A DNA stretch of 64,000 bases from a virus: IMG/VR virus record IMGVR_UViG_3300022752_000025, positions 1-64,000 of that record. The stretch is one strand, 5' to 3'. The translations under genes and the position numbers were made by a program. Positions within the stretch are counted from its first letter, which is position 1; every line of letters begins with the position of its first letter. Positions 5,264 to 42,453 of this stretch are shown here, piece after piece. Under the pieces are notes generated by a model. That model saw nothing but the letters and a program-made list of their open reading frames with translations, did not search any database and was not told the DNA's origin.

Positions 5264-5359
5264 ATATCTATTAAATAATATTATTAATTAATATTACACA
5301 TAATTCTATTATTTTTAATTAATTTTAATTATTTTTAAAATATAATAATCTATTATTTT

Positions 5360-6226
5360 TTAAGATAAAATTATTTTACCTTGCGAAACGCCCTGTTTAT
5401 TTATATTAAGTTCTCCAATTTTATAAGTTGGTAAAATATCATTAATTGTAAATAAAGTCGCTGTATATCCTCCTCCAAGACTAGTCATAGTCGAATTAAT
5501 ATCATTAATATAATAAGAAAGACTAGGGCCACTTATACTAAGAAGAAATGTAAAAGTTAATATAATTTTGTTTTCAAATACAAGGCATATTGGATTTCCA
5601 GAATCTCCACCTACTGGAACTTCATAAAAATTAGCTCTTTGTGCAAAATCAGTTGACGATTGACATACTCCACCCGCTCCATCAAGATAATATTCTCCAA
5701 CAAGCGCATTTCTGTCTTGATCCATAAAAAATGCAGGGAGTTTAACGCTTGAATTAGTTTGATTTGCTATATTAATATCTAATATTTTAGCAAAAGAAAC
5801 GCTAGTAATATCTGAATCTAATAATCCTATTTGAATATCTGTACTACCAACTTGCGCAGAATTTGAAAGAGTTCTTGTATAACAGTTATTATTCATATCA
5901 ACAAAAACAAAAGTTGTTCCATTATAAAATCTAAAATGATTTGCATAAACTATATGTCTAGGACTAATAAGCGTGCCTGATCCTCCATATCCGCCAGGAT
6001 TAAAAGGTATTGGTCCGCTAGCATTATTATTCCAAATTGATTGAGGAGAAGTGTCTATATTTTTTGCCCAACATGTTGTGCTTCTTGTGAAAGCTGGAAT
6101 TGTAGCGCTAGGACTTTTAGAAGAAAATATTTGTTTAGTAGTTGAATTAGCTGTTAATCCTACTATTTTATTATCTATATTAGGATCAAATATAGATCTA
6201 ATAGATGCGCTTTGAGTAATAATCAT
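5360..6226 (-). CDS. Trypsin-like serine protease domain protein
   Basis: GTLISPRHIVYANH (His), DIQIG (Asp), GGDSGNP (Ser) triad motifs. Confidence 0.75.
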   Translation of the reverse strand: MIITQSASIRSIFDPNIDNKIVGLTANSTTKQIFSSKSPSATIPAFTRSTTCWAKNIDTSPQSIWNNNASGPIPFNPGGYGGSGTLISPRHIVYANHFRFYNGTTFVFVDMNNNCYTRTLSNSAQVGSTDIQIGLLDSDITSVSFAKILDINIANQTNSSVKLPAFFMDQDRNALVGEYYLDGAGGVCQSSTDFAQRANFYEVPVGGDSGNPICLVFENKIILTFTFLLSISGPSLSYYINDINSTMTSLGGGYTATLFTINDILPTYKIGELNINKQGVSQGKIILS

Positions 6227-28944: not shown

Positions 28945-29157
28945 CTATATTTTAGGATCAATTATATCATCAATTCCATCTTTATCTTTGTCTTTGAATG
29001 TTTCTGGATCTCTGGTAAAGATCTCTTTTGCAAATAGATACTCACTCTCAGGTGTGTTTTCTATTGAATTTTCTGTTTTTTTATGTTTTATTAATATAGA
29101 TATAGATCCAATTAATAATATTAATGCTGATATAGTAAAGAATAAATAAAATAGCAT
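28945..29157 (-). CDS. Small membrane protein with DxDxDG Ca-binding-like motif
   Basis: TM plus DKDKDGIDDIID. Confidence 0.6.
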   Translation of the reverse strand: MLFYLFFTISALILLIGSISILIKHKKTENSIENTPESEYLFAKEIFTRDPETFKDKDKDGIDDIIDPKI

Positions 29158-29379
29158 ATAGATTTATGTATATTGATATAATATATTACACATATATTAA
29201 TAATAGTTTTATTATTTTGGGGAGAATGATATTAGTACCCCCACGGTCATATTGTGTTTTTGGAGTAGCCATTTTTTTCAAAAATAGGGGGGTATCTTTT
29301 TGCTTAAATTATCATAAGTTATTGATAATCAATGAAATTTAAATGTTGCATTTATTCTATTCTGTGATAGATTAAGAGC

Positions 29380-29541
29380 ATGAAGAAGAAATTAAGCAGA
29401 TACGAACAACTGATAGCTAACCTCGACAAAGCGGCCCAAGACCTCAAGGACGCTTCGGCTCACGCCGTAGCAACCCTTGAAGCTCACGCTAATAAGATCG
29501 AAGAAATTAACCAAAAGTATTCTACCAGCGAAACAAAATAA
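29380..29541 (+). CDS. Small early protein (53 aa, leaderless)
   Basis: Manual translation MKKKLSRYEQLIANLDKAAQ...; TTGCAT and TGaTAGATT promoter ending 6 nt upstream. Confidence 0.7.
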   Translation: MKKKLSRYEQLIANLDKAAQDLKDASAHAVATLEAHANKIEEINQKYSTSETK

Positions 29542-29580
29542 CCATTGACGAAACATAAATCAGAAAGCATAATAAGCACT

Positions 29581-30000
29581 ATGAAAAACCAAATCACAAT
29601 CACAACTCAAACCTTCGGCAACACCAACGCTTTCCTCTTGGAAGGCGATAAGAAGCAGATCGAAAACTTCCACAACGCTATGTATAACTACTCAGCGACT
29701 AATGGCGAGTTGCATGATATGGGTAACGGCAAAGCGTTCTACTTCTACGCTCAACCCGAAGCCGTGCTAGAAGCGATGACCAAAGTGGCTCTCTATGCCC
29801 TATGCAATAAGATCAAAGCTAAAGGCATGAAGGGTGGATTGCTCGCTCTTGCAAAGCAGAAAGCACAGATCAAGTTCGATGCAATTAAAGAAGGTCGCTT
29901 CCTTCGCACCGCTGAATCTAGTGATACCTATAACCTTGGCACTATCACCGCAGAGCGTCCTAGTGACTACTGCGGAGCGATCAGCAACGGGAGAGACTAA
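29581..30000 (+). CDS. Unknown early protein, family A copy 1
   Basis: FHNAMYNYSATNGEL...GKAFYFYA; start set by promoter TTGACG-17-CATAAT-7-ATG. Confidence 0.75.
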   Translation: MKNQITITTQTFGNTNAFLLEGDKKQIENFHNAMYNYSATNGELHDMGNGKAFYFYAQPEAVLEAMTKVALYALCNKIKAKGMKGGLLALAKQKAQIKFDAIKEGRFLRTAESSDTYNLGTITAERPSDYCGAISNGRD

Positions 30001-30377
30001 TGACCGCTGAGATACTTGTTATAGCTTTAACGCTACTTGGTGAAGCAAGGGGCGAAGGCTTTGAAGGAATGGCTGGTGTTGCGTCTGTTATTCAGACACG
30101 AGCCATCGAGCGTAAGCAAACGCCTACGCAGGTCTGCCTTGCACCAAAGCAGTTCAGCTTCTGGAATGGTGGAGTAAGTGAAGCTAAGAAGCAGGAGCTT
30201 CTAAAGAATCCTCAAGCACACAACGCCATTCGTCTTGCTAAACTTGTAGCAGAGAAACGAATGCCTGATGTTGTAAATGGTGCTAACCATTACCACACCT
30301 TGCAGGTATCCCCTAAATGGTCGAAGGGTGAGAAGCCAATCGCATTAATACAGAACCATAAGTTCTACCGATTGTAG
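30000..30377 (+). CDS. SleB-like cell wall hydrolase (Hydrolase_2)
   Basis: EARGEG, QFSFWN, GANHYH, HKFY. Confidence 0.85.
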   Translation: MTAEILVIALTLLGEARGEGFEGMAGVASVIQTRAIERKQTPTQVCLAPKQFSFWNGGVSEAKKQELLKNPQAHNAIRLAKLVAEKRMPDVVNGANHYHTLQVSPKWSKGEKPIALIQNHKFYRL

Positions 30378-30414
30378 GACTTGACAACCACGAAAGACAT
30401 GATAATATAAAACT

Positions 30415-30798
30415 ATGAAACCAATAAGAGCAATCCTCATTGACCCATTCACAGAAACTGTATCACAGGTAACCCTTGTAGATGCTAAACTCCAAACGCT
30501 CAAGAGCCTCATCGAGTGCGAGATTATCACGATGACAGGTTTGGCAAATGGCGTAGATATGATCCTAGATGACGAAGGACTCTTGAAGGACTCAAACTCT
30601 CAAACTTACTTCAAGTTCGGGATTGGTTCACAGCCTTTTGCTGGCAAAGCTCTGATCGTTGGCACAAACGATGAAGGCGAAACTGTTTCGCTTCCAGAAA
30701 ATATCACAACCGAAAAAGTTTTTGAGCGTATCATCTTTTTTAAACCCTCAAAAAAATATCTTGATGAATCTTTAGAAATTAAAGTTATCCCATTCTAA
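30415..30798 (+). CDS. DUF3846-like protein
   Basis: AILIDP...DDEGLLK...FAG.ALIVG..DEGE..SL. Confidence 0.65.
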   Translation: MKPIRAILIDPFTETVSQVTLVDAKLQTLKSLIECEIITMTGLANGVDMILDDEGLLKDSNSQTYFKFGIGSQPFAGKALIVGTNDEGETVSLPENITTEKVFERIIFFKPSKKYLDESLEIKVIPF

Positions 30799-30809
30799 AT
30801 TCTGCCTTC

Positions 30810-30884
30810 GTAAGTTGTTGAATATCAATGACTTACGCGGGGCGGGAGGCTGTGTCTGTAAATGCTTGATAATCATATACTTAT
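30810..30884 (+). repeat. 75-bp bipartite element copy 1 (27-bp palindrome, 21-bp GC spacer, 27-bp palindrome)
   Basis: GTAAGTTGTTGAATATCAATGACTTAC-gcggggcgggaggctgtgtct-GTAAATGCTTGATAATCATATACTTAT. Confidence 0.9.
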
Positions 30885-30969
30885 ACAAACCTGATCTTAG
30901 ACTAAAACCTGAACGAAGCCAAAAGATCGAAAACGATCTTAGACCAAAACCTGATGGAACGCATAAAAC

Positions 30970-31044
30970 CTAAACCTCTAAGTATCAATCACTTACAGAG
31001 ACGCCCTCCCTTGCGTTGTAAGTCGTTATCAATCAACGAAAAAT
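30970..31044 (-). repeat. 75-bp bipartite element copy 2 (spacer inverted)
   Basis: Same 27-21-27 geometry; spacer contains CCCTCCC. Confidence 0.85.
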
Positions 31045-31109
31045 AAATGAAAAAATATCTTGCAAAAATAAAATTTTGTGATAGATTAAAAATAGAAAGA
31101 GAGAAAAAA

Positions 31110-31316
31110 ATGAAAGCAAAAATGAAAATCAAATTCGACCTCAACGAAACAATCCGCAGACTTAACGAAATTTCCAAAGGCTTTGAAGCCTCGGCAAATC
31201 GTATCCAAGTGATCGTGGAAGATGCGAACAAAAAGAAGCAAGAAGCCCACGAAAAGTTTATGGCTTCTTCGCAACTCGTTGATACTCAAGGAAATTTAAA
31301 TGGAGAAAAAATTTGA
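31110..31316 (+). CDS. Small early protein
   Basis: ORF track; start moved to after the TTGCAA/TAGATT promoter. Confidence 0.6.
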   Translation: MKAKMKIKFDLNETIRRLNEISKGFEASANRIQVIVEDANKKKQEAHEKFMASSQLVDTQGNLNGEKI

Positions 31317-31387
31317 CTTTTCGCTGGAGTGTGATAGATTAAAGGTATGAAAGATAAGAAAGAAAATAAGAAAGGTAATAAAAGAAA

Positions 31388-31660
31388 ATGAGTCATAGAA
31401 TGATAAATTGGAACTATCAGCGTAGGCTGATGCGTGAAACGATGCGTAGTGCATCAAGCGAAGTAGATGCTTCTAAAGTCTACCCAAAAACCGAAACCTT
31501 TTTCGGTGATGTTTACTTATACGAAGGAGTTTTAGTCAAACTCGTTTACAAAACAACGGCAGAGACTGCCGTAGCTGAAATCCTCGAAGGTGAGGATAAA
31601 GGTAAGACCACAACGATCTACCTTAACAAAGCAGAATTCGTAAAGAAAGAGAATAAATAA
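31388..31660 (+). CDS. Hypothetical protein
   Basis: ORF track. Confidence 0.65.
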   Translation: MSHRMINWNYQRRLMRETMRSASSEVDASKVYPKTETFFGDVYLYEGVLVKLVYKTTAETAVAEILEGEDKGKTTTIYLNKAEFVKKENK

Positions 31661-31903
31661 AATGAATAAAGATAATAAAAAAGAACTAACTTCCCAAGAG
31701 TGGGAAATTCAGCGTTGGGAAAATAACAATAAGAAGTGGGCTAGACTCAAAAAGAGTTGGGCTGATTGGAAAAAGAACAATCCAGAAAAGGCTAAAGCTC
31801 ACGCCTTACTAAAGGCAAAACTTAATGGAAAGAAGTCCTAAGTCGTTGATAATCAACGCAAAATAAAAGTTGACAAAATTAAAAAATCTGATAGGATAAA
31901 GGT

Positions 31904-32323
31904 ATGACAAAGAAAGAACTAATGAAAGCAAACAGAGAAAAACTACAAACCATCCGTGCAGAGAACGCACGAAAAGAAGCAGAAGCCATTGAGACTTTTC
32001 GCTCACTCAACATTCAAGCGGGAGACTTCATCCAAGTTTCCTACATCTCCAAGTGGAGAATCACAGGTGAACATACCGAGACTGAAATCTGGTATGCTGA
32101 TGCTACTGAAAATGATCACTACTCAAACCTTCCGTTCATCAAAAAGATAATGTTTTGGAACTTGTCTGGTGGATACAATCTTCTCACCAGCGTTGGACAA
32201 TACTTTGACATCCAAAAAGTCGAAGCAACTCCCGAACTTCTGGAAAGAGTTGAAACTACCAAGGGAATCTCTGCTGGAATCCACGAAGCGTATAATAGCG
32301 GTGGACAATATAAAGGAGACTAA
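31904..32323 (+). CDS. Hypothetical early protein (leaderless)
   Basis: TTGACA-16-TAGGAT-6-ATG. Confidence 0.75.
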   Translation: MTKKELMKANREKLQTIRAENARKEAEAIETFRSLNIQAGDFIQVSYISKWRITGEHTETEIWYADATENDHYSNLPFIKKIMFWNLSGGYNLLTSVGQYFDIQKVEATPELLERVETTKGISAGIHEAYNSGGQYKGD

Positions 32324-32324
32324 T

Positions 32325-32528
32325 ATGGACTTAACAAATAGCGTTCAAAGACTCAAAGAAGAAATCTACTACGGAAGCGAAGCTCTCCAAAGCTTAAGTC
32401 GAGCACTTCAAATTGCTAAAGACAAAAAACTAAACCGCAACTATTCAATCCCTGACCATATGTGGCCTGATATAGAAGCGGAGATTGAAGAAGAAGCAAG
32501 CGAATGGGCAGTTGATTACCAAGGGTGA
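32325..32528 (+). CDS. Hypothetical protein (start re-assigned to MDLTNS)
   Basis: SD AAGGAG before ATG 32325. Confidence 0.65.
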   Translation: MDLTNSVQRLKEEIYYGSEALQSLSRALQIAKDKKLNRNYSIPDHMWPDIEAEIEEEASEWAVDYQG

Positions 32529-32832
32529 AAAACTTTCTCGCCTCTTTTCGGGCGACTCTCACCAAAAAGAAGGGTTGGTGGGAGCAAACTTTTCTTTTCT
32601 GGCGTGTGCTTGCTGGCTTGCGTTTTTGTGAAGAAATGATAGACTTAATAAATTACAAAACAAAAAACAAAATAAAATATACTAAAATGAAAACATTCTT
32701 ACGCCGTCATATCTTGCAACTCTCAAAAATTTTCTATTCTCTCGCTGTTAAAAATGGCGAAAGAAAAAATTACAAACTCGAAAAATTTTTCTACTATCCT
32801 TCTGCGTTTTTGCTTGAACTAAAAGATCTCGT

Positions 32833-32907
32833 ATAAGTCTTTAACTATCAACGACTTACACGCGCAGGGAGGGCCCGCGCGCAAATCGTTGACTATCAAC
32901 AACTTAC
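32833..32907 (+). repeat. 75-bp bipartite element copy 3
   Basis: ATAAGTCTTTAACTATCAACGACTTAC-acgcgcagggagggcccgcgc-GCAAATCGTTGACTATCAACAACTTAC. Confidence 0.9.
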
Positions 32908-32948
32908 AAAAGCTTGACAAAAATAAAAAATCTGATATCCTTTTTTTT

Positions 32949-33311
32949 ATGCAAAACAAAACAAGAATCTTCTCTGAACCTTTTGGCCCTAACCTCGCCT
33001 ATTTGATTGAGGCTGATTTCCTATCTGCTGAAAGATTTTATAATGCTATTTATAATTTCGGTGGAACGAATTACAAATTACAAGATCGTGGAAGTGGTAA
33101 AGCATTTTACTTTTATGCAGAACCAGCGAAGTTTCGCAGAGCATTGTCTCTTGCTCTCTCAAGCAATCTTGAATCTTCATTTGGTGATGGCGACTGGGAA
33201 CCTCATGGAGAAGCCCTAGCAGATCAAATCATTTCAGAAATAAAACCAGCAACTTTTGTAAGGCGTTGTCATTCAATAGAATATTCTTATAGAAAATCTT
33301 TGACAGAATAG
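32949..33311 (+). CDS. Unknown early protein, family A copy 2
   Basis: FYNAIYNFGGTNYKL...GKAFYFYAEP; leaderless promoter upstream. Confidence 0.75.
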   Translation: MQNKTRIFSEPFGPNLAYLIEADFLSAERFYNAIYNFGGTNYKLQDRGSGKAFYFYAEPAKFRRALSLALSSNLESSFGDGDWEPHGEALADQIISEIKPATFVRRCHSIEYSYRKSLTE

Positions 33312-33333
33312 TAATCTGTGATACATTACAAGT

Positions 33334-33573
33334 ATGACAAACGACATCAACTACCTCGCCTCTATAACCACAGCCGAAGCCTTTGCTGATGCGGAAGCAT
33401 TCTTCGACTACATCAACTCCGCTGATGCCATCAACGATATGCTTGATCGGATGGCTCCTACCTACGACGAGCAGGATACGGAAGTAGTGCATTTTAACAA
33501 GCCTGCTACTTTCTGCGGGATGCCTTTTATCACTTTTCGTCTTACCTGTCAGAATGGAATGGAGGTTAAATAA
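33334..33573 (+). CDS. Hypothetical protein (leaderless)
   Basis: TTGACA(33300)-16-TACATT-6-ATG. Confidence 0.7.
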   Translation: MTNDINYLASITTAEAFADAEAFFDYINSADAINDMLDRMAPTYDEQDTEVVHFNKPATFCGMPFITFRLTCQNGMEVK

Positions 33574-33574
33574 T

Positions 33575-33859
33575 ATGGCATACGACTACAAAGCCTCTCT
33601 CAAGGAGTGGATGAGCCAGCACATGCTGACTCCGCTGGATGTGCGTGACATCCTCAGCGAAATTCGTAAGGATCGCGAGGAGGGGCGCGTCCTAGAATCT
33701 TCTCAATCTAACCTCTCTGATGTAGACGAATCGATGGATGGTGACTTCGATTCTGCTATGGCCTCTGCTGGTCATGGAACCGATGAGGACTATGGTGGCG
33801 GATGCTACCAGATGGAAGACTTCGGTTGGGCTGGTGATCCAGAAATTTGTGGAGAATAA
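33575..33859 (+). CDS. Acidic hypothetical protein
   Basis: SD GGAGG; MDGDFDSAMASAG.GTDEDYG motif. Confidence 0.7.
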   Translation: MAYDYKASLKEWMSQHMLTPLDVRDILSEIRKDREEGRVLESSQSNLSDVDESMDGDFDSAMASAGHGTDEDYGGGCYQMEDFGWAGDPEICGE

Positions 33860-33966
33860 TATGGAAAAATATATGCTTGCAATTGCAGGGCTTGGAATTT
33901 TTTTCCTTGCTCTTGCCATATTAGAAACCCTTATCAATTTTGCTGTATGGTTTTGGAATCATAAGC

Positions 33967-34041
33967 GCAAGTAGTTAACTATCAACGACTTACGCGCGCA
34001 GGGTCCCTGCCCTCGTAAGTGCTTGATAATCAAATACTTAC
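33967..34041 (+). repeat. 75-bp bipartite element copy 4
   Basis: 27-21-27 geometry; overlaps the stop codon at 33974. Confidence 0.9.
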
Positions 34042-34256
34042 AACGATGCCCATTCTCTAAAATCTTCTCGCAATTCTTTTTCGTAACTTACAAAATCTTT
34101 TTTTGCATCAAGTGGAGGATTATCTCCATCGCTCCATGGATAAAAAGTTTCTAAATTTTCGTTTAATAATTTTTCGATATTCATTTTAAGCTCTCCTTAA
34201 TCATTACAAAAAATACAAAGGTAACAATCAATAAGAATAAAGTCATATGTTGCATC

Positions 34257-34892
34257 TTAATGTTTTTTGTAGTTAATTGCAAACTCATTTTTATGCCAAC
34301 ACGCACGGCACGAACCGCACTTGTTACCTTGTTTCGATGAGGGACAATTAAACTCTCCCTTTGTGCTTGCACCACTAACGCAGAGGCCAAGGCGTTCTGC
34401 TAATCCAACAGGTGCGGGGCCATTCATCATAAGAGCAGATAAGCGGATAGTAAGATTGAAAGGAACTTCACCGCCCTTTGCTATATACTCTGAAACGAAA
34501 GAGTATTCCCTAGTTGGCAACCAAAAAGAAATATGCGGAAGATTCTTTGCAATCTTTACAATTTTTTCAAGATGCCATACGCCTTGCAAATCTCCCGAAT
34601 CGTGCCAACGGAAGTGCGGATTGTTTGTCTTACCGATAAGATAAGTCATAGCATCCACCCAAAGATCGTGAGTAAGAGAAGCAAAACGCTTTTCCATCGC
34701 TGCTTGAACATTGGGGAAAACATAACGCCCTTTAAGAGCATAACAAAAAGCACAAATGCTTCCCGCAATACTACGCATTTTTTGTCCAATAATGCAACGC
34801 TTGGCTGGCGTGGAATAAGCATAACCTGGCATCTTCGAGGGTTTGGATAGTGTTCCAACTATCGCTTCGGCTTGTTTTTTGTTTTTGAACAT
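34257..34892 (-). CDS. GP88-like protein (radical-SAM-like Cys motifs)
   Basis: SKPSKMPG, C...C..CYA.KG.Y, FRWHDSGD, WLPTRE, CP...C.SCRACW. Confidence 0.75.
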   Translation of the reverse strand: MFKNKKQAEAIVGTLSKPSKMPGYAYSTPAKRCIIGQKMRSIAGSICAFCYALKGRYVFPNVQAAMEKRFASLTHDLWVDAMTYLIGKTNNPHFRWHDSGDLQGVWHLEKIVKIAKNLPHISFWLPTREYSFVSEYIAKGGEVPFNLTIRLSALMMNGPAPVGLAERLGLCVSGASTKGEFNCPSSKQGNKCGSCRACWHKNEFAINYKKH

Positions 34893-34941
34893 AAAATAAA
34901 TGTATCACTTTTTTTTCTTGTGACAAGTTTTTTTTATAGTT

Positions 34942-35016
34942 AAATCTCGTTGAGTATCAATGAGTTACAACTGCAGGGAGGTGGCTTGCCTAAGTTGTTG
35001 ATACTTAAGCGGTTAC
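34942..35016 (+). repeat. 75-bp bipartite element copy 5
   Basis: 27-21-27 geometry; second arm overlaps the ardC stop. Confidence 0.85.
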
Positions 35017-35844
35017 AGCTTCTTCTTCTGGAATCTCTTCGGTTTCTTTTTTACCCAAAAAAGCGTCAAATCTTTTTTGTGCTTTGCTAGAAGCTGAAAT
35101 AATAAAGTTCATATCCTTTTTTAATACTTGGAGCCAACTCGAAAGATAGCTCGCAGAATTATTGAAACATTTTTCAGAATTAATCCCGCAGAAGTTAAGA
35201 CAAAGACTCGCAAAAATCTCTGCGGTCAATTCTTCTTTGCTATAATTCTGTGAACCAAATCCATTCTTCACATCGTCATTGGTTGCCTTGTGCATAGCGT
35301 GACCAATCTCATGAAATGCTGTGGAATAATACTCTTCGACGCTGTTAAAGTTTTCTTTTGGAGGAAGATCAATCTTATGTTCCTGCGGATAATAGCAAGC
35401 ACGACTGCCACCATACTTAATCTTAATGATACACTTGTTGATCAACTTTTCTGCTTCTTCTACTGGCGAAAACTCCAGTTTCTTAACTTCAGGTTGTTTC
35501 CACTTCAGTCCTTCGATATCACTTAAACCAAAGACTCTGTAGTAACGCATCATAGGAAAACTTTTGGTTTCATTATCTTTTTCTGTCTTGAGTAGTTTGT
35601 AATAAACTACCATGTGAGACTTTGCACCAGCTTTGATCTTTCCACCAAGTTCTTTGATCTGATTAAAGGTAAAGAAAAAATCATCAGAAGAAAGCATCCG
35701 AAGCAAAAATTGATTGATGCCACGATAGTTCTTTTTCGACACGCCGTTGCAGAGGTCAAAAACTTTCCAAGGTTTCTGCCAAGGGCACACGCCTTTGTTG
35801 AGAGCTTCGATGAATTTTTCTGTGATGATTTCGTTTACTTTCAT
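35005..35844 (-). CDS. ardC: ArdC-like antirestriction ssDNA-binding protein with zincin domain
   Basis: PWQKPW, YRGIN, TFNQ...GG.IK.G.K, YYSTAFHEIGH, YSKEELTAE, SASYL.SW. Confidence 0.88.
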   Translation of the reverse strand: MKVNEIITEKFIEALNKGVCPWQKPWKVFDLCNGVSKKNYRGINQFLLRMLSSDDFFFTFNQIKELGGKIKAGAKSHMVVYYKLLKTEKDNETKSFPMMRYYRVFGLSDIEGLKWKQPEVKKLEFSPVEEAEKLINKCIIKIKYGGSRACYYPQEHKIDLPPKENFNSVEEYYSTAFHEIGHAMHKATNDDVKNGFGSQNYSKEELTAEIFASLCLNFCGINSEKCFNNSASYLSSWLQVLKKDMNFIISASSKAQKRFDAFLGKKETEEIPEEEAVTA

Positions 35845-35883
35845 AGCTTAAATATATCAGCTTTTTGTTTTTTGTCTACAAAA

Positions 35884-35958
35884 GAATCTCATTCACCATC
35901 AACGACTTACAGCGCAAGGGAGGTCACCTTCATAAGTCATTAATAATCAATGAAATAA
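35884..35958 (+). repeat. 75-bp bipartite element copy 6 (between divergent promoters)
   Basis: 27-21-27 geometry; spacer agcgcaagggaggtcaccttc. Confidence 0.85.
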
Positions 35959-36012
35959 AATTGTTGACTAAAAATAAAAATATGATAATCTATAGAAAGA
36001 AAGGAGGCAAAT

Positions 36013-36147
36013 ATGATGGATATATTCGATGACCAAAAAACATTAAACATCTGGGCAAAAGAAATGTGGGACGATCAAGCTATGGAACGAGCCTTAGAAA
36101 CTCAAGCAGAGCTTGATGCTGACCATGCTCGTGATATGGGAGAGTAA
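36013..36147 (+). CDS. 44-aa acidic protein
   Basis: Manual; own promoter and SD AAGGAGG; bracketed by element copies 6 and 7. Confidence 0.6.
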   Translation: MMDIFDDQKTLNIWAKEMWDDQAMERALETQAELDADHARDMGE

Positions 36148-36221
36148 TAACTCTCTCATTATCAACAACTTACAAGGGCAGGGAGCTCGCCGCTGTAAAT
36201 CTTTGATACTTAATTACTTAT
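36147..36221 (+). repeat. 75-bp bipartite element copy 7
   Basis: 27-21-27 geometry; spacer aagggcagggagctcgccgct. Confidence 0.85.
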
Positions 36222-36237
36222 AACTATTATAAATATC

Positions 36238-36309
36238 TAGGGCTAAACGGATTCGAACCGATATACCCTCATTGAAAGCGAGGAGTCCTAACCATTAGAC
36301 GATAGCCCC
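36238..36309 (-). tRNA. tRNA-Glu(TTC)
   Basis: Cloverleaf, anticodon loop CT-TTC-AA, GGTTCGAATCC. Confidence 0.9.
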
Positions 36310-36393
36310 AATATGTAGTATTATTATATTTGTTATTTATCTATTTTGCAAATATTATTTGCTATTTAGTGTAATCTAATTTAGAATTTAGAG

Positions 36394-36576
36394 ATGAACT
36401 CAAAAGTAAGTGGTATATTAGAAAATTCTGCATTGTATAAAGAATTTCTTCGTGAACGAGAAGAGATATTAAAACACAAATGGATTGAAAGTGAAAAAGC
36501 TGGGCGTGATGTAGGATTTGAATGGGCTCTTCTTGATTGGAATTTCAATCACAGAAATAACTGGCGTAATAAATAA
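36394..36576 (+). CDS. Small DUF4032-like protein
   Basis: EREEILKHKWIESEKAGRDVGFEWALLDW; GTGTAAT upstream. Confidence 0.7.
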   Translation: MNSKVSGILENSALYKEFLREREEILKHKWIESEKAGRDVGFEWALLDWNFNHRNNWRNK

Positions 36577-36577
36577 A

Positions 36578-36829
36578 TTAAACTTTTCTCTCAACAATAG
36601 ATATTCTATTAAGATAATATTTTAGAGACTCATAAGGAAATCTAGTCGTTTGAGAAGCTATTTCCTTAATCATCCTATCTATAATATTGGGTCTAACAAA
36701 GATCCTTGATTTATTCTGAACAAAGATAGTTAGCGGAAAATTATCAAGATTATATCCAAATCTTTGTTTTCTTCCACGAATATTGCAATAAAAAGTAACT
36801 CTTAAATTCTTATATGAAACATCTTTCAT
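36578..36829 (-). CDS. Hypothetical protein
   Basis: ORF track; own TTGACA promoter. Confidence 0.6.
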   Translation of the reverse strand: MKDVSYKNLRVTFYCNIRGRKQRFGYNLDNFPLTIFVQNKSRIFVRPNIIDRMIKEIASQTTRFPYESLKYYLNRISIVERKV

Positions 36830-36871
36830 TTATGTAATATACTATTAATTGAAATTATGTCAATAAAATTT

Positions 36872-37001
36872 AGTTCTTCCGCTCTCTTTATTCTAGAACT
36901 AAAGAGAATATATTCCCACCTTTAATTGCCTCAGACTCTGGGCATTGGGGCTTCAATGGCTCTTATGGAGGAAGTCATCCTCACTCATTGCGGAAAGAAC
37001 T
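36872..37001 (-). ncRNA. Candidate 130-nt structured RNA
   Basis: Own promoter TTGCAA-16-TAAGAT; terminal stem AGTTCTT(T)CCGC/GCGGAAGAACT with 3 inner hairpins. Confidence 0.5.
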
Positions 37002-37026
37002 ATCTAAATCTTATCAGAGTTTAATT

Positions 37027-37260
37027 TTATTGCAAGACTTTTTCTAAACTATCTGATTTTGGCCAAAGAGAACAAATGACTTTATCTAAAAGCATTTCAT
37101 CGTGTATCTCTTTCCAGTTTAGGTCATAGATCCCCTCGTCAATAACTGCACCAGTACTATCAGTAGTACAAGTATAATTAAGTTTTTTTCCTTTATATTT
37201 GAATGTATGGAAAGTTCGAGTTTGAATATCAATTTCTTCTTTTACTTTGGTTACTTTCAT
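37027..37260 (-). CDS. Hypothetical protein
   Basis: ORF track; promoter directly upstream. Confidence 0.65.
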   Translation of the reverse strand: MKVTKVKEEIDIQTRTFHTFKYKGKKLNYTCTTDSTGAVIDEGIYDLNWKEIHDEMLLDKVICSLWPKSDSLEKVLQ

Positions 37261-37302
37261 ATTATCAGTATACCTTTGATTGTTTTAATGTCAAATAAAA
37301 AA

Positions 37303-37324
37303 GGCGAGGATTTTACTCCTCGCC
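37303..37324 (-). terminator. Rho-independent terminator
   Basis: GGCGAGGA/TCCTCGCC stem plus U-tract. Confidence 0.75.
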
Positions 37325-37348
37325 CTTTCTATGATTGTCTTTCTGTTC

Positions 37349-37609
37349 TTAAACTGGCGAAAGACCACCAGAGATCCGATCATAACGGAACTGACGATGT
37401 CCGAATCCGTCACGACCAGAAAAGCACCAAGAAATGAAAAGTTTGTTTCCAGCCTTGGAAATGTAATGAGTGGTAGGAACGCCAACGATGTAAGTATAAG
37501 CCTCGGTTCCATTGTAAGGTTTATAGTTGATGATATACCGCTGTCCCAGCACGAACCAGAACAGACCCTTAATCATCTCCCACAGGGTGATGTTGTTTTG
37601 TTTCTTCAT
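37349..37609 (-). CDS. Hypothetical protein
   Basis: ORF track; WYL-like ending RQFRYDRI. Confidence 0.6.
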   Translation of the reverse strand: MKKQNNITLWEMIKGLFWFVLGQRYIINYKPYNGTEAYTYIVGVPTTHYISKAGNKLFISWCFSGRDGFGHRQFRYDRISGGLSPV

Positions 37610-37648
37610 TTAATAATCATACCATAACTTCATTTTTCTGCAAGAAAT

Positions 37649-37723
37649 AAATCTCATTGATTATCAACGACTTACGCGGCAAAAGTCCCTGCCGTTTTAA
37701 CTACTTAATAATTAAAGACTTAC
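37649..37723 (-). repeat. 75-bp bipartite element copy 8
   Basis: 27-21-27 geometry; spacer with CCCTGC (inverted). Confidence 0.85.
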
Positions 37724-38124
37724 AGAGGTTAATTTATTCTTCTGTTTCTTTCCAATTTGGATGCGCTTTGGCCCACTTTACAAAAACAACTTCAAGATTT
37801 TCCAAGTATTTATCTATCTGTGCAATAAGTTTAGGATCTTCACCTTGCAGAACTCTTTTTTCTAAGATTTTGCTGATCCTATTTTCATGTTTCATATATA
37901 CTATTTTACAGTAGCGTTATAAATATTTCAATATTTTATTTTATCCTGTAAGATTTAAAGAAAAAATTATTTTAGATGTGTAATTACTATTTTAATTAAT
38001 TGTTCTAATGCGCCCCAAAAAATAGAAAAGCCAATAGCAGAAGCAATAATGAATGGGGCGTTTCTATCAAAAAAATTTCTCACATAAAAACTTTACAGCG
38101 AGAAAAAACTTTTGGGAAAATTCT

Positions 38125-38198
38125 CGCTTTCAGCAGGGATCGAACCTGCAACCTACGGATTAGAAATCCGTTGCTCTATCCAATTGAGCTATGAAAGC
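38125..38198 (-). tRNA. tRNA-Arg(TCT)
   Basis: Cloverleaf, loop TT-TCT-AA. Confidence 0.92.
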
Positions 38199-38200
38199 GA

Positions 38201-38276
38201 TGGTCGCCTAGGTCGGACTCGAACCGACACTTGAACGATTTTAAGTCGTTTGCCTCTGCCATTGGGCTACTAGGCG
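38201..38276 (-). tRNA. tRNA-Leu(TAA), short variable arm, encoded CCA
   Basis: Loop CT-TAA-AA; variable region only CAAGT. Confidence 0.88.
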
Positions 38277-38282
38277 GATCTT

Positions 38283-38669
38283 TTAGCTATCGTTGTCTAA
38301 CTTTTCAGCAGAGACTTGACCGATAGAATAAAAATCTTGAACTTGTGCAGTTTTAACAAAACTTTCAACAGGAATATTTTTAATCGTATTCGAGACACGA
38401 TTCAGAACAACCTGTTTCAGACCACCTTTAGCACCACGAAACTTCTTTCCAAGTTTGTCACTCATACTATTCATAACATACTTAAACATCACACGCTCTA
38501 ATTTTTCAAGAGTGATCCAAAAATATGCAAAGGATTCACTCATCCATTGAAGTTCGCCATTTGTTCCACCCCAATTATAAATTCGATTGTGAAACTGCTC
38601 AATTTCATCTTTCTTTCCTTTGATACCAATAACCCAATGTGCTCCAAGATTTTGTTTAACGAGTTGCAT
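38283..38669 (-). CDS. Unknown early protein, family A copy 3
   Basis: FHNRIYNWGGTNGEL; SD AAGGAG before MQLVKQ. Confidence 0.75.
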   Translation of the reverse strand: MQLVKQNLGAHWVIGIKGKKDEIEQFHNRIYNWGGTNGELQWMSESFAYFWITLEKLERVMFKYVMNSMSDKLGKKFRGAKGGLKQVVLNRVSNTIKNIPVESFVKTAQVQDFYSIGQVSAEKLDNDS

Positions 38670-38862
38670 TTTGTTTTTCTCCTTTTTGTTTGAAATATAA
38701 ATCAATATCTTCTTGTGTCAAGTCTGTATGTTTAGCGTATGAGTTCAGCATCCAATGTAGTGTTGGAGCTACAAGCCAGCTATACTTAATAAGGTCATAG
38801 GTTTCTTTCATTGTTTTTAGTTTAACAGGATTTGTTTTTTTGTCAAGGGTTTTCTTAATTTT

Positions 38863-38934
38863 TGGATCGCGTAGGACTCGAACCTACAACCAATTGGTTA
38901 AAAGCCAACTGCTCTACCATTGAGCTAGCGATCC
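38863..38934 (-). tRNA. tRNA-Lys(TTT)
   Basis: Cloverleaf, loop CT-TTT-AA. Confidence 0.92.
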
Positions 38935-38941
38935 GAAATTT

Positions 38942-39014
38942 TGGGCCTGATAGGATTCGAACCTATAACCAAAGCATTATGAGTGCTCTGCTCTAACCGT
39001 TGAGCTACAAGCCC
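38942..39014 (-). tRNA. tRNA(CAT), probably Ile2 (lysidine type)
   Basis: Loop CT-CAT-AA; GGGCTTG acceptor typical of Ile2. Confidence 0.85.
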
Positions 39015-39305
39015 ATCTTTTTAGGAAGCTACTACCTTCGCTGGAAAACTAGAAGGCTTTGGAACTTGCACAAACTCGACAGCAAAAGCCTCGGCAATGT
39101 TCTGCAACTCTTTCAGAGAGCAAGTCTCTTTTGGAGTGCACATACGAATTGAAGTGTTTAAGATGACGGCTCGATCTTGACCGAACACATTCATCACATA
39201 GAATGGAACTGATTGGTTGTTTGTCATAGGTTTAATATACAACAGTTTGATAAATAGTCAACAAAAATAATTGGTTGAATATCAATAATTTACATATAAT
39301 AAGAT

Positions 39306-39399
39306 TGGTACGAGGGGAAGGATTCGAACCTTCATTTTGCCCAAATCTAGAGCGACCAGAGTATAAGTCTGGGGTCTTAACCAGTTAGACGACCCTCGC
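39306..39399 (-). tRNA. tRNA-Ile(TAT) with long variable arm, encoded CCA
   Basis: CCAGA-CT-TAT-AC-TCTGG; variable arm of about 22 nt; GGTTCGAATCC. Confidence 0.8.
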
Positions 39400-39607
39400 A
39401 TTACCAGCCGTAGCTAGTATCGGCCTCCGCTTTAGGCTTTCTTTTCGGATTTCTCCGAGCCAATCTTTTTAATGATAACTTTCGTGCCGTCAGGCCAAGT
39501 GCGGATAATCTTACGCCAATGCTCTGCTTCATGCTCTGCTTCGGCAAGATCAGTATGCATATCCTCGCTGACACGAATACCATCACGCAAAACGATATAC
39601 TTTACAT

Positions 39608-39838
39608 TCATTCTTCTACCTCTGCGATAATTTCATTGTCAAATAGTGAGCCACCATCTACCTTGTCGCAGATTACGATGTCATTACTGCCATCATCACC
39701 AGCATACACGGCACGAAGTTTTTTTACTTGACTATACTCTTTTTTCGTCCATTGACTCTCTGGAACGCCGAGGACTTGCAGAGCCTCAACTCTCTCTGGA
39801 GGAATTGCCTCACCACTTACTGCACAATGATAGGTCAT
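39608..39838 (-). CDS. DksA/TraR-tip-like small protein
   Basis: CAVSGEAIPPERVEAL resembles C..CG..I...RL.A. Confidence 0.5.
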   Translation of the reverse strand: MTYHCAVSGEAIPPERVEALQVLGVPESQWTKKEYSQVKKLRAVYAGDDGSNDIVICDKVDGGSLFDNEIIAEVEE

Positions 39839-39845
39839 AGTTTTA

Positions 39846-40232
39846 CTATGCTACAATGTTTTGATTTTCTGTCAAGAGATTTTTGCGTGGGCGACCACGG
39901 CCACGCTTTTCTCCGCTGGGCAGAATTGCTGTTGCATTATAGTTTGTTAATTTCTCTTGTAGTTCGCCGAAACGCTTGTTTGCATCTTCTATAGTCGTGC
40001 AAGTAAAAGCCCAATCGCCCCATTGACTATCGCTAGGATACATTTCAGCGGGAGGCATTTTTACGCCAGCAATCTCATACCCATTATGACGCTTAATTGC
40101 TACAACTTCATAGTGATAGTTTTCGCTCTCACCATCATCAAGTTGTTTTTTGTAAATAGCGATGTCGCCATCACGCTTTACTTGTTGAAGTTTGAAACCT
40201 TTACTTGTAAATGATTCTTCAAGAATTTTCAA
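39846..40232 (-). CDS. Hypothetical protein with C-terminal AT-hook
   Basis: E.YPSDSQWG..AFT; KRGRGRPRK. Confidence 0.7.
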   Translation of the reverse strand: MKILEESFTSKGFKLQQVKRDGDIAIYKKQLDDGESENYHYEVVAIKRHNGYEIAGVKMPPAEMYPSDSQWGDWAFTCTTIEDANKRFGELQEKLTNYNATAILPSGEKRGRGRPRKNLLTENQNIVA

Positions 40233-40399
40233 TTTTTACTCCTTCTGGAAGCCAGCCTTTTGGATCAAGGTTTTCTCCAATATAGCCAACTTGGGACTCT
40301 TGCTTGGTTTTGGGGTCAATAGCATAAAGAGCATAGCCACCTTCAGCCAGCTTCTTTACTTTAGTAATGTTCATATAAAGATTATAGTATAGTTTTAGA

Positions 40400-40738
40400 T
40401 TAATTCAAGACAAAAATTTCTCTACCAATCACCCCAGCCCATTTTGCTTTATATACTGGTTTTTTAGTATCGGCATAAACAAAAGATTTATACTTGTAAG
40501 GATTATATGTCACAAGCCTCTCTCCGTGAATAGGCCATCCATCGTCTCTATGTCCGCATACAAAAGCGTGAACATTTTTTCTTTTTTCTTTTAAGACCCT
40601 ATCCCTACCAGCTTGGCTTACTCTAAATTCAACATCTTTAAGAAAGAACTCTGAACTATGCTCTAATACTTTTCCTTTTAGCATAATAGAAAGACAATGC
40701 TTATGCAGATTATAATAAACTTTATGTTTTGCTCTCAC
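40400..40738 (-). CDS. Conserved phage hypothetical protein
   Basis: VYYNLHK...F.VSQAGR.RVL.EKRKNVHAFV.G...YNPYK. Confidence 0.75.
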   Translation of the reverse strand: MRAKHKVYYNLHKHCLSIMLKGKVLEHSSEFFLKDVEFRVSQAGRDRVLKEKRKNVHAFVCGHRDDGWPIHGERLVTYNPYKYKSFVYADTKKPVYKAKWAGVIGREIFVLN

Positions 40739-40778
40739 TAACTTAACTATAAGATAAATTCTATAAATGTCAAGCTTT

Positions 40779-40853
40779 ATAAGCAGTTGATAGTCAATGA
40801 CTTACAGCGGCGAGGTCCCCCCGCGCGCAAGTCCTTGATAGACAACGACTTAT
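40779..40853 (-). repeat. 75-bp bipartite element copy 9
   Basis: 27-21-27 geometry; spacer agcggcgaggtccccccgcgc. Confidence 0.9.
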
Positions 40854-40878
40854 AATTAGTCAAATTTAGACAAAAAGA

Positions 40879-40901
40879 TGCGAGGGGTTTTGCCCCTCGC
40901 A
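40879..40901 (-). terminator. Rho-independent terminator
   Basis: TGCGAGGGG/CCCCTCGCA plus U-tract. Confidence 0.75.
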
Positions 40902-40924
40902 CTTGTTAAGGTTTACGTTTTAGT

Positions 40925-41782
40925 TTAGGCGATCAGTTTCAAGAGGTCTTCGTCACGGGTTTGACCGCTGAAGACTTTGAGCAGATCACGATTCACACGC
41001 TCGCTGTACTCATAACGCTCTTGCGAGACATTGCGAGTCAGGAACTGAGTTGAAGCGTTGTAGAGGTTGTAGAGGTTGCGAGGCTTGTCCTCATCATACT
41101 GAGGATTCAGCCACACCGCCTCGATCCCTTCACGCACCTTGCCAGAGATAATGTCTTTCTCTTCCAGCTTGGTGAGCAGTTTCAGACCGTTCTCATTCGA
41201 GAGATCCTTCAGGGCAAGCCTGTTGAAAATCTCGGCAGACTGGTCAACGTTTGACATAGCCTTGAGAAGCGCATCATTAACGAAATCCAGATTGACAGCA
41301 AGCGTATGCCGCTTAGTCATGCTGAACTCCTTAGTGAGCGAGGTCATGCCATTCTCGCAAACGAGACGAAGGAAGCCAAGGGTGAGAGACACACGGCAAG
41401 AGCGATCATAACTGTTGTTAACAGTCAGACGCAAGCCGAGAATGTCACCTTTCTTACGGTCTCCCACGGGCTTGAGTTTGGTCTCAAACTTGGGGAAATC
41501 ATAAGATGCATAGAAGCGAGCCCCATCACGCACAACGATCTTCTTCGAGTTGAACTCGGAGAGCCTATCATGCTTGACGAGATTGGTTTCCACCATCTCA
41601 ACGAGGTCTGCATTCTTCACCACACCATACTGCTCGGTGCAAACTCCGAGTGTAATGGGTTCGGCGGTGTCACGGCGCACCATGCCGAAGTATCCTGTCC
41701 TCTTGCCGTCAGTTGTGAGGAGTGGCTCTTGGTGTACGTCAAAATCGTATACACTTTGAGCGGGTTTTGTTTTTCTAGCCAT
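40925..41782 (-). CDS. DUF932-family protein
   Basis: Y.VV.N...NSYDRS...RLVCENG...LYN.YNA.T. Confidence 0.8.
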   Translation of the reverse strand: MARKTKPAQSVYDFDVHQEPLLTTDGKRTGYFGMVRRDTAEPITLGVCTEQYGVVKNADLVEMVETNLVKHDRLSEFNSKKIVVRDGARFYASYDFPKFETKLKPVGDRKKGDILGLRLTVNNSYDRSCRVSLTLGFLRLVCENGMTSLTKEFSMTKRHTLAVNLDFVNDALLKAMSNVDQSAEIFNRLALKDLSNENGLKLLTKLEEKDIISGKVREGIEAVWLNPQYDEDKPRNLYNLYNASTQFLTRNVSQERYEYSERVNRDLLKVFSGQTRDEDLLKLIA

Positions 41783-41887
41783 AAGTTAATCATACTATAC
41801 TTTTATAATCTGACAAGAAAAAAATAAATGTCATAAGATACTAAATATCATAGGTTTAAGACTTTTTGCTAAAATAATTTTATATCT

Positions 41888-41962
41888 GTAAACCCTTGAT
41901 TATCAACGACTTGCGCGCGCGGGGGGCCCGCCGCCCTAACTATATAATAATTAAGTACTTAT
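41888..41962 (+). repeat. 75-bp bipartite element copy 10
   Basis: 27-21-27 geometry; second arm overlaps the stop at 41959. Confidence 0.85.
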
Positions 41963-42453
41963 GTCAACTTAAATTTAATATTACTTCTTCTGTACTCTCT
42001 TACTTTTCTCATAGCATATAAACTAGCATCAACTTCACATAATTTAGCTTTAGTTCCCATGTTATATTTTCTTATCTTTTTAATACCATGATAGAACTTA
42101 CCTTTCTTATATTGATAAATATGTCTTAATTCATGAGCAATTAATTCAATTAAACTTTCTTCCCAAGTATATGTATTAACTTCTAAATATCCTCTAAATC
42201 CACCACTCTTATATGGTTTAATATATTTATTATATGCTGGGACTCCTACATGAAGTCTCATACTGCCCCATGCTCTGCCGTGCCAACCTAATTTAGTATT
42301 ACCAATATCTATTTTTCTGATGTCTTTAAGGAACACCCCTTGAGGCATACACCATTTAATAATTTCTTTTAATTTATCAGAACAATATGAGGTTGTATTA
42401 ATGAGCTTCATAAACTCAAATATACAATAAATTAAAATTAAGTCAAGGCACAA
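41959..42453 (-). CDS. HExxH metallopeptidase-like protein (true start probably MKLIN)
   Basis: LIAHELRH..Q...EVDA. Confidence 0.65.
   Translation of the reverse strand: MCLDLILIYCIFEFMKLINTTSYCSDKLKEIIKWCMPQGVFLKDIRKIDIGNTKLGWHGRAWGSMRLHVGVPAYNKYIKPYKSGGFRGYLEVNTYTWEESLIELIAHELRHIYQYKKGKFYHGIKKIRKYNMGTKAKLCEVDASLYAMRKVREYRRSNIKFKLT

Follow-up and report, generated by a model that had tools for sequence, protein, structure and literature searches.

The first 64 kb of the IMG/VR record IMGVR_UViG_3300022752_000025, a record of 132,273 bp from an uncultured lake phage, rated 86% complete, were analyzed here as the window. Between 29.3 and 42 kb the window carries ten copies of a bipartite element, in which two 27-bp imperfect palindromes (the arms) enclose a 21-bp GC-rich spacer. 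The copies belong to a real, rigid, and conserved family of cis-elements. The family is confined to one island in this record and in four relatives, its symmetry comes without hairpin covariation, and its arms stand in register with promoters and match the consensus of IHF. We infer that the arms are bound by protein as duplex DNA. Docking of a protein of some kind is probable, and the reading that we favor, although we hold it only tentatively, is that the arms are docking sites for a bending or regulatory protein, likely of the host IHF type, at the borders of early transcription units.

Ten Elements of One Geometry

An earlier note, made from the sequence alone, had reported ten full copies of exactly 75 bp starting at 30810, 30970, 32833, 33967, 34942, 35884, 36147, 37649, 40779, and 41888. 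When these positions were printed, each showed an imperfect palindrome, a GC-rich spacer, and a second palindrome (27 + 21 + 27 bp), and de novo repeat finding returned seven copies of 75 nt (D1) and two sets of 11 arms (D2 and D3). The note called the element exact, which is true of the geometry and not of the letters, since the ten copies differ in sequence, with 60–76% identity between the reference copy and the others. For the arm, the consensus reads GTAAGTCGTTGATAATCAACGACTTAC. The solo arms that had been listed at 29314, 31838, and 39267 are real and the one near 41833 is degenerate, while a further arm at 31271-31297 had been missed.

The whole record was scanned with a symmetrised arm matrix, which gave 24 matches of at least 12 bits. 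All 24 lie within 29314-41962, an island of 12.7 kb, so that the claim of no copy outside 29.3-42 kb stands for the full record. The matrix maxima in 20 shuffled genomes were 9.9-17.4 bits, and 20 of the real matches are above 18 bits. As the matrix was trained on the window arms themselves, the independent support for the family comes from the de novo repeats and from the relatives.

Conservation in Related Phages

The search pattern used on IMG/VR combined the inner half-arm with 21 unspecified bases and the first part of the second arm, and the 60 matching stretches were fetched. True elements were present in 35 of them (143 copies), 12 represented a second family that is described below, and 13 were chance or other matches. 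Together with the window this amounts to 153 copies, 134 of them unique and many of them orthologues. The 134 unique copies align without gaps. Among 150 close arm pairs over all loci, the distance between arm starts is 48 bp in 145, 47 bp in one, and 49 bp in four, so the spacing is kept in the homologues.

Four whole records were tested for their terminase, which in three of them is 80-89% identical to that of the window; one of these three, G007, is complete (171,916 bp). In G007 (100% complete), G008, G009, and G010 the elements occupy one island each, of about 10-12 kb, and the few two-mismatch matches outside it all lack the GC-rich spacer. The 18 loci with at least four elements share a single conserved backbone in which the elements occupy the same junctions, while the gene content between the elements varies. 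The element at the junction of the GP88-family gene and ArdC is kept in 14 of 14 loci. No relatives were found among cultured phages, either by DNA or by terminase, and a literature search (subscription journals outside its coverage) found no published description of the element.

A stricter pattern was run against 185,579 bacterial and archaeal species genomes, one per species, and matched only two contigs of about 1 kb each. The rest of the two metagenome-assembled genomes that carry these contigs contains no other arm. The element thus belongs to a phage lineage and not to host chromosomes. These data also bear on the idea of a selfish miniature mobile element spreading within the island, similar to MITEs (miniature inverted-repeat transposable elements), repetitive extragenic palindromic sequences (REPs), or REP doublets forming hairpins (REPINs). 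The terminal inverted repeats, the many copies, and the intergenic placement speak for such an element. However, its positions are orthologous and stable across relatives, it is restricted to one island in the four relatives and is absent from bacterial genomes except for the two short contigs, and no presence/absence polymorphism with target-site duplications was seen. No Y1 or other transposase was found (Y1_Tnp, PF01797, had no match in this record), and a selfish origin appears barely credible.

Symmetry without a Hairpin

Eight columns of the alignment are invariant (T10, A18, T24, T25, A51, A52, T58, and A66), and the near-invariant columns include A3, T6, A19, A22, C27, G35-G37, T54, T57, A60, and T73. 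Two hairpin models were tested on the 134 copies. If each arm forms its own hairpin (plus a spacer stem), 69.8% of the cells pair, compared with 69.1 ± 0.3% in partner shuffles. If arm 1 pairs with arm 2 in one long hairpin, 66.5% pair, compared with 69.6% after shuffling, and 500 out of 500 shuffles reach the observed value. In a separate count per pair, pairing equaled the product of the column frequencies at every pair. Both models were rejected, as pairing was equal to or below that of the column shuffles. Because there is no compensatory change, the symmetry comes from two half-sites pulled to one consensus, as in a duplex protein site, and not from selection for pairing. Without a pairing signal, attC-like folded strands, REP-like RNA hairpins, RNase III sites, and cruciforms all become less plausible.

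The same data apply to a role in RNA, in which the element would be a terminator, an RNase III processing site, or a 3' stabilizing hairpin between early genes. The elements are intergenic, 91 of the 134 copies fold as the long hairpin by minimum free energy, and other lineages have a true GC hairpin, with A and T tracts, between copies of these boxes. The folding energy of the whole element is −20.3 kcal/mol, compared with −14.0 kcal/mol for shuffles, and the z-score of the spacer is −0.5, values that are not remarkable. Against an RNA role stand the missing covariation, the long hairpin that pairs less than its shuffles, the orientation of the units, which lie in both directions relative to transcription, and the result for Rfam, where no family matches the elements and only tRNAs and weak tRNA look-alikes were detected. 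The reading as a terminator was rejected. A canonical GC hairpin with a T run (40878-40902, minus strand) follows the DUF932 gene and sits between this gene and element 9, which is therefore not itself the terminator, and no T run comes after the units. In our opinion an RNA role is very unlikely.

The spacer evolves differently from the arms. In 51 orthologous comparisons of the window with its relatives, identity was 87% and 81% in the two inner half-arms, 83% and 80% in the outer ones, and 68% in the spacer, with 80% in the surrounding alignment. The spacer never changed in length in these comparisons and kept its GC richness and a central GGG(A/T)(G/C)(G/C), with little else conserved. This is how a distance-setter between two sites would be expected to behave, and we propose that the spacer may act as a stiff ruler that places two bound arms 48 bp apart. 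Its polarity is neither constant nor alternating. The earlier note had recognized the FtsK orienting polar sequence (KOPS) in two spacers. While GGGCAGGG is indeed present in two window spacers, GGGNAGGG occurs in only 7 of the 134 unique family members, with mixed polarity, and is not a family feature. Both the KOPS and the Chi-like readings of the spacer were rejected.

Arms and Promoters

Two kinds of arm can be distinguished. In the first, the outer end reads ..GACTTAC and adjoins the 3' end of a gene, a tRNA, or another repeat. In the second, the outer half reads ..GA(A/G)ATTT, and a sigma-70-type promoter, whose −10 box is extended, follows. Among 570 promoter-like sites over all loci, 123 have an arm end 0-60 nt upstream, and in 109 of these the gap between the arm and the −35 box is either 5-6 nt (45 sites, preceding at least 11 different gene clusters) or 15-16 nt (64 sites, preceding at least 10 clusters). 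A few arm-proximal promoters show a gap of 26-29 nt. In the window, eight promoters have the gap of 5-6 nt and four that of 15-16 nt. Gap steps of about one helical turn would be expected if a protein bound to the arm must face the RNA polymerase.

In the mechanism that we propose, each 27-bp arm would dock a sequence-specific bending or regulatory protein on double-stranded DNA, with a host protein of the IHF type as the top candidate. The promoter-side arm would lie upstream of the −35 box at a distance of full helical turns, from where the bound protein could act on RNA polymerase, and the gene-end arms would close the unit. The elements would mark the limits of the transcription units in an early island that is richer in GC and carries anti-restriction genes. 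As the units are repeated, they may now and then also serve as crossover points, as a by-product.

The Same Arm in Other Phages

The second family found by the IMG/VR search (records G003-G005; loci L007, L014-L016, L020, L024, L028, L037, L042, L046, L055, and L059) has the same 27-bp palindromic arms with a spacing of 57 bp and an AT-rich spacer of 30 bp. A −35 box TTTACA and TGATATAAT follow its second arm, with a gap of 5 nt to the −35 box. These phages are about 180 kb in size with 37-38% GC, and they have no island protein in common with the phage of the window. In another set of loci (L082-L094), on contigs of 33-62% GC, inverted pairs of the 13-mer box of the inner half-arm were found with spacers of 11-12, 15, 17, 31-32, and 38-39 bp. 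Some of these spacers are a true GC hairpin between A and T tracts, resembling a two-way terminator. The presence of the same arm in phages without a common island protein favors a conserved host factor.

A text search further located the 13-mer box in a paper on the cultured T4-like Stenotrophomonas phage DLP6 (PMC5349666; genome KU682439.2, 168,489 bp, 55.8% GC), where it stands in the terminator table. Its genome contains 24 exact TCAAYGACTTA boxes, the 11-mer core of the 13-mer, mostly as direct pairs 25 bp apart. The order in the DLP6 module is box pair, GC-rich hairpin of about 20-21 nt, TTTACT, 16 nt, and TATAAT. The DLP6 paper describes 25 'phage promoters' predicted by PHIRE before gene clusters, 22 of them in groups of two (PMC5349666), and the box positions agree with the gene clusters that these promoters precede. 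A box followed by about 20-21 nt of GC-rich DNA, in DLP6 upstream of gene-cluster promoters, is the order also seen in half of a window element, and from its sequence the window element looks like two DLP6-type modules placed head to head on a shared GC block. The differences are that the boxes of DLP6 form direct repeats at a distance of 25 bp, whereas the window arms are palindromic, that the GC segment of DLP6 is a true hairpin with a T run overlapping the −35 box, and that the paper reads the boxes as promoters (PMC5349666). The two phages have only PhoH, an SleB-like hydrolase, DUF6915, dCMP deaminase, and ribonucleotide reductase in common. A BLAST search with the DLP6 module identified no other cultured phage, and the 25-bp direct pair was found in three IMG/VR contigs.

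In all, the 13-mer box occurs in unrelated phages of 33-62% GC with spacers of 11-12, 15, 17, 21, 30-32, and 38-39 bp, in addition to the direct 25-bp pairs of DLP6. A single arm-like 28-mer, identical to arm 1 of element 3 at 26 of 28 positions, lies between genes in coliphage C130_2 (L074, MH363708.1 2021-2048); with an E-value of 0.02, it may be due to chance.

Candidate Binding Proteins

The 13-bp consensus of IHF is WATCAANNNNTTR, and full IHF sites carry an A/T-rich tract 5' of it. The inner half-arm reads (T/A)ATCAACGACTTAC and matches this consensus. The earlier statement that most arms contain it was borne out, with exact matches in 15 of the 20 element arms and all four solo arms (19 of 24 window arms). 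In the family, 117 and 109 of the 134 copies have at most one mismatch to the consensus in the two inner half-arms, respectively. The exact consensus occurs 40 times in the genome, and 23 of these sites fall within the island, which makes up 9.6% of the record. The invariant or near-invariant columns A18, A19, T24, and T25 and the R-only column 26 correspond to IHF consensus positions. Promoter-side arms also have an A/T tract, AAAT(T/C)T, 8 nt before ATCAA, while gene-end arms do not and are palindromic instead. A gene for HU/IHF (PF00216) was found neither in this record nor in the complete relative G007 or four other records, so the binder would be a host protein. The earlier note had offered, as one of two readings, an array of protein-bound bending or loading sites on the first-injected DNA. 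The bending sites fit the symmetry, the rigid spacing, the IHF match, and the promoter register, while nothing points to first-injected DNA.

Several observations weigh against IHF-type docking at unit borders. Conservation also extends to columns outside the IHF consensus (T6/A22, G21, C27, and the GGG in the middle of the spacer) and points to a binder of higher specificity. The terminase has relatives in phages of Bacillus and Clostridium, and with a near-threshold LPXTG match this would allow a Gram-positive host, which would have no IHF, so that IHF in the host is a supposition. In DLP6, a spacing of 25 bp is tight for two IHF footprints. Only six of the ten window elements adjoin a promoter outside the arm (elements 1, 4, 7, and 10 do not), and many island promoters have no arm. 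Because of these four elements and several armless island promoters, help to promoters is not the whole function, and the constant feature is the position at a transcription-unit border. Contigs from an RNA library span element 5 (34795-35199), which, if they are truly RNA, means no absolute block of transcription; the four read runs consist of contigs only, in which transcript ends and circles are not visible and uncovered parts are uninformative. Finally, with many orthologues among the copies, their counts are not independent events.

Some of these points would be met by a dedicated phage regulator that uses the arms as duplex docking sites for an operator- or 'stoperator'-like shut-off or roadblock of the early island. 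The additional conserved columns, including the GGG in the spacer centre, are in line with this, as are the elements at gene ends without promoters, which resemble roadblock sites. The island holds homologues of mycobacteriophage L5 gp82 and of the GP88 family, and L5 uses many intergenic repressor sites. However, no DNA-binding domain was detected in the 40 open reading frames (ORFs) of the island and its flanks that were scanned with Pfam and PHROGs, the scans covering part of each genome, and the same arm is present in lineages without a common island protein. We consider a phage regulator unlikely.

IHF-type docking could also take a more elaborate form. Two U-turn bends of the IHF type, together with the stiff 21-bp GC ruler, would make a nucleoprotein knot that feeds upstream DNA to the outward promoters in register and blocks supercoils and read-through between packed, opposed, and very strong units. 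Such an insulator is a speculative proposal that we regard as rather doubtful.

Recombination and Gene Exchange

The other reading in the earlier note was an integron/pdif-like system that shuffles anti-host gene cassettes, for which a recombinase would have to cut in the spacer. As in attC and pdif sites, imperfect inverted repeats lie at the 3' ends of small accessory genes, the two inverted arms surround a centre, and some modules are bounded by elements. The note had seen no recombinase in the window, and extending the search to the whole record and to the complete relative gave none either. Phage_integrase (PF00589) had no match in this record (86% complete), G007 (100%), G008, G009, or G010, while the control matched in 14 of 14 genomes, and Resolvase likewise had no match in this record or in G007-G010. 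As no recombinase was found in the complete relative, an integron/pdif-like system is not supported. The geometry differs as well. A dif site is about 28 bp long, with two arms of about 11 bp and a centre of about 6 bp, and attC sites vary in length, whereas here the arms are 27 bp, the centre is 21 bp, and the length is fixed. In addition, a folded-strand signal is lacking, the cassettes have their own promoters and run in both directions, the polarity of the spacer is irregular, and the order of the elements is largely conserved. Cassette shuffling of this type is highly improbable.

Breakpoints inside the elements, which the cassette model predicts, were not enriched. The odds ratio for variability at gene junctions with an element, compared with junctions without one, was 0.65 (Fisher p 0.12); with the solo arms included it was 1.1 (p 0.70). 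This test is blurred by paralogous clusters (0, 1, and 5) and crude ORF calls, and it left out ORFs of less than 60 aa that had no relatives. Of all alignment ends, 26 of 201 were located in elements (7.5% expected); within non-coding DNA alone the count was 25 of 63 (32.5% expected), which is no enrichment.

A milder form of exchange is that the elements provide portable homology, so that promoter-gene cassettes move in the manner of the promoter(early) stem-loop elements (PeSLs) of T4-type phages and regulation is secondary. T4-type PeSLs do act in this way according to PMC2839356. Two loci provide examples. In L005, a single hybrid element replaces element 5, ArdC, element 6, the 44-aa gene (gene 27), and element 7 of the window. 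In L053, the same flanking elements enclose a 155-aa ORF (5297-5764, minus strand) in place of ArdC and the 44-aa gene. This ORF has a weak match to GIY-YIG (E 0.01, 16.6 bits, below the cut-off of 22.6 bits) and may encode a free-standing homing endonuclease. Metagenome contigs also join 34002 to 36194 and 30838 to 31007, from spacer to spacer, though the sides are short (21 and 29 letters, 90% likeness) and the joints are flagged unreliable. Contig joints at elements are in part cross-matching of similar arms, for example 32860 to 33965.

Other observations speak against portable homology as the main function. Apart from the junction and alignment-end results and the element kept between the GP88-family gene and ArdC, the 44-aa gene of L006 follows directly after another gene with no element upstream, and the single-gene indels (32323/32528 and 36576/36865) lie away from elements. 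Homology alone also does not explain a fixed spacer of 21 bp. Metagenome contigs of close variants skip 36577-36864 and 36857-37287, so the small ORFs 36578-36829 and 37027-37260 are dispensable, and their loss is again not at elements. Occasional homologous exchange between repeats, as in PeSLs, would be an economical reading of the element-bounded examples, while portable homology as the purpose of the elements seems quite unlikely.

Placement of the Individual Elements

Arms overlap stop codons at 32834-32836, 35005-35007, 36145-36147, and 41959-41961, as the earlier note had reported, and also at 34038-34040; the overlap given for 33974 depends on a doubtful ORF. Element 1 (30810-30884; arms 30810-30836 and 30858-30884, spacer 30837-30857) starts 12 nt past the stop of the DUF3846 gene and is the left member of a tandem pair with element 2 (30970-31044), whose right arm has an A/T-rich outer half and lies 15 nt upstream of a −35 box TTGCAA at 31060. 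In element 3 (32833-32907), the TAA at 32834-32836 is the stop of the gene 32636-32836, and the right arm is 6 nt from the −35 box TTGACA at 32914. Element 4 (33967-34041) marks a convergent strand switch without an adjoining promoter, and its right arm spans the stop (34038-34040) of the minus-strand gene 34038-34184.

The left arm of element 5 (34942-35016) is 15 nt from the −35 box TTGTCA (34926, minus strand) of the GP88-family gene, and its right arm encodes the final residues of ArdC together with the stop at 35005-35007. Two divergent promoters flank element 6 (35884-35958) at a distance of 5 nt each, with TAGACA (35878, minus strand) belonging to ArdC and TTGACT (35964, plus strand) to the 44-aa gene. 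The first base of element 7 (36147-36221) is the final stop base of the gene 36013-36147, and the 3' end of a tRNA-Glu is 16 nt past its right end. Element 8 (37649-37723) has its left arm 5 nt from the −35 box TTGCAG (37643, minus strand) and its right arm 10 nt from the stop of the gene 37734-37895. The left arm of element 9 (40779-40853) is 5 nt from TTGACA (40773, minus strand), and to its right are the canonical terminator and the end of the DUF932 gene. The right arm of element 10 (41888-41962) spans the stop (41959-41961) of the gene 41959-42411 and overlaps a promoter-like site at 41967-41939 on the minus strand.

The solo arms show the same gaps to promoters. Those at 29314-29340 and 31838-31864 lie 5 nt upstream of TTGCAT at 29346, in the promoter of the gene 29380-29541, and of TTGACA at 31870, respectively, and the latter spans a TAA stop at 31839-31841. 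The arm at 31271-31297 is within the 3' end of the ORF 31047-31316 and 15 nt upstream of TTGACT at 31313. On the minus strand, the arm at 39267-39293 is 5 nt from TTGACT (39261), and the degenerate arm at 41833-41859 is 16 nt from TTGTCA (41816) in the promoter of the DUF932 gene.

Between elements 1 and 2 lie 85 bp that are taken up by two direct repeats, each about 40 nt long, GATCTTAGAC..AAAACCTGA.. (30893-30974, plus strand), as is also the case in relatives. Gaps of tandem elements measure 84-87 or 123-124 bp and hold two such repeats of the form GATCTT..AAAACCTGATGGAA..AAGATC. They were seen in the window (30885-30969) and in L005, L006, L009, L012, L021, L023, L025, L044, L045, L048, L053, L054, L056, and L062. 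In 15 of 16 distinct tandem gaps the GC spacers of the two elements face each other, the exception being L056, where both point the same way (E> E>). The longer gaps have an extra promoter-like TGTTATGCT stretch that reads into the repeats. The gap repeats could represent a small RNA, an iteron-like site, or another protein site.

The Early Island

The island (29300-42000) has 33-42% GC, compared with mostly 24-35% in the rest of the genome, which suggests a different origin or constraint for its early genes. Small genes lie on both strands between 29.3 and 42 kb, and the proteins recognized by Pfam and PHROGs scans include an SleB-type cell-wall hydrolase, DUF3846, a GP88-family protein, an ArdC-type anti-restriction protein, a homologue of phage L5 gp82, and DUF932. 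GATC is not enriched in the island (3.54/kb, 3.52 expected). Three paralogues of one protein family are encoded at 29581-30000 (plus strand), 32949-33311 (plus strand), and 38283-38669 (minus strand). They form the largest cluster of the island, with 35 members over the loci, and gave no lead in Pfam, PHROG, or Atlas. Six tRNA genes are present. One of them, tRNA-Ile(TAT) at 39306-39399 (minus strand), is with 94 nt much longer than its neighbors, and DLP6 also lists a tRNA-Ile-TAT, of 92 nt. Just left of the island, a 70-aa ORF (28945-29157, minus strand) matches the LPXTG cell-wall anchor with 19.9 bits against a cut-off of 20, which may be a hint on the host envelope.

Discussion

The element is somewhat similar to PeSLs and to IHF-bearing bacterial interspersed mosaic elements (BIMEs) and lacks features that define each of them. 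PeSLs, as described in PMC2839356 and PMC4122927, are short composite repeats in variable regions of small accessory genes, lie between the stop of one gene and the next sigma-70-type promoter, have a GC-rich centre (GGGG..CCCC in PeSLs and GGG(A/T)CC here), and are occasional crossover points, their recombination producing indels and mini-circles (PMC2839356). In these sources, however, a PeSL combines a promoter with a real stem-loop terminator at a variable position, whereas the present element is rigid, with neither a hairpin signal nor a U tract. Its promoter is outside the unit and is missing from four of the ten window copies, and changes of gene order are not enriched.

The IHF-binding repeats of enterobacteria, BIME-1 or repetitive IHF-binding palindromic (RIP) elements and REP-BIMEs, are likewise intergenic mosaic repeats at transcription-unit ends that combine palindromes with an IHF site. 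In RIP elements, GC-rich hairpin palindromes flank one IHF site. The architecture here is the inverse, as two IHF-like palindromes flank a GC block. REP and BIME sequences are also chromosomal, number in the hundreds, and are associated with RAYT transposases, whereas the present element is restricted to phages and has AT-rich arms and no Y1 transposase. According to PMC6907758, BIMEs have been proposed as domain or supercoil barriers.

If the insulator described above is true, the occurrence of the same 13-mer box in many geometries would mean a widespread and undescribed piece of phage regulatory hardware. The half-site in DLP6 moves the question from metagenomes to a system that can be handled at the bench. 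In large phages, early islands hold dozens of small genes for anti-defence and take-over, and outside T4 and T7 little is known of how these units are separated and timed. A rigid and conserved element whose sequence code is clear and that is present in many uncultured lake phages offers a testable handle on this, that is, on the protein that reads it, on activation versus insulation, and on gene exchange guided by repeats. If the reader is IHF, the range of possible hosts of these phages would be narrowed as well.

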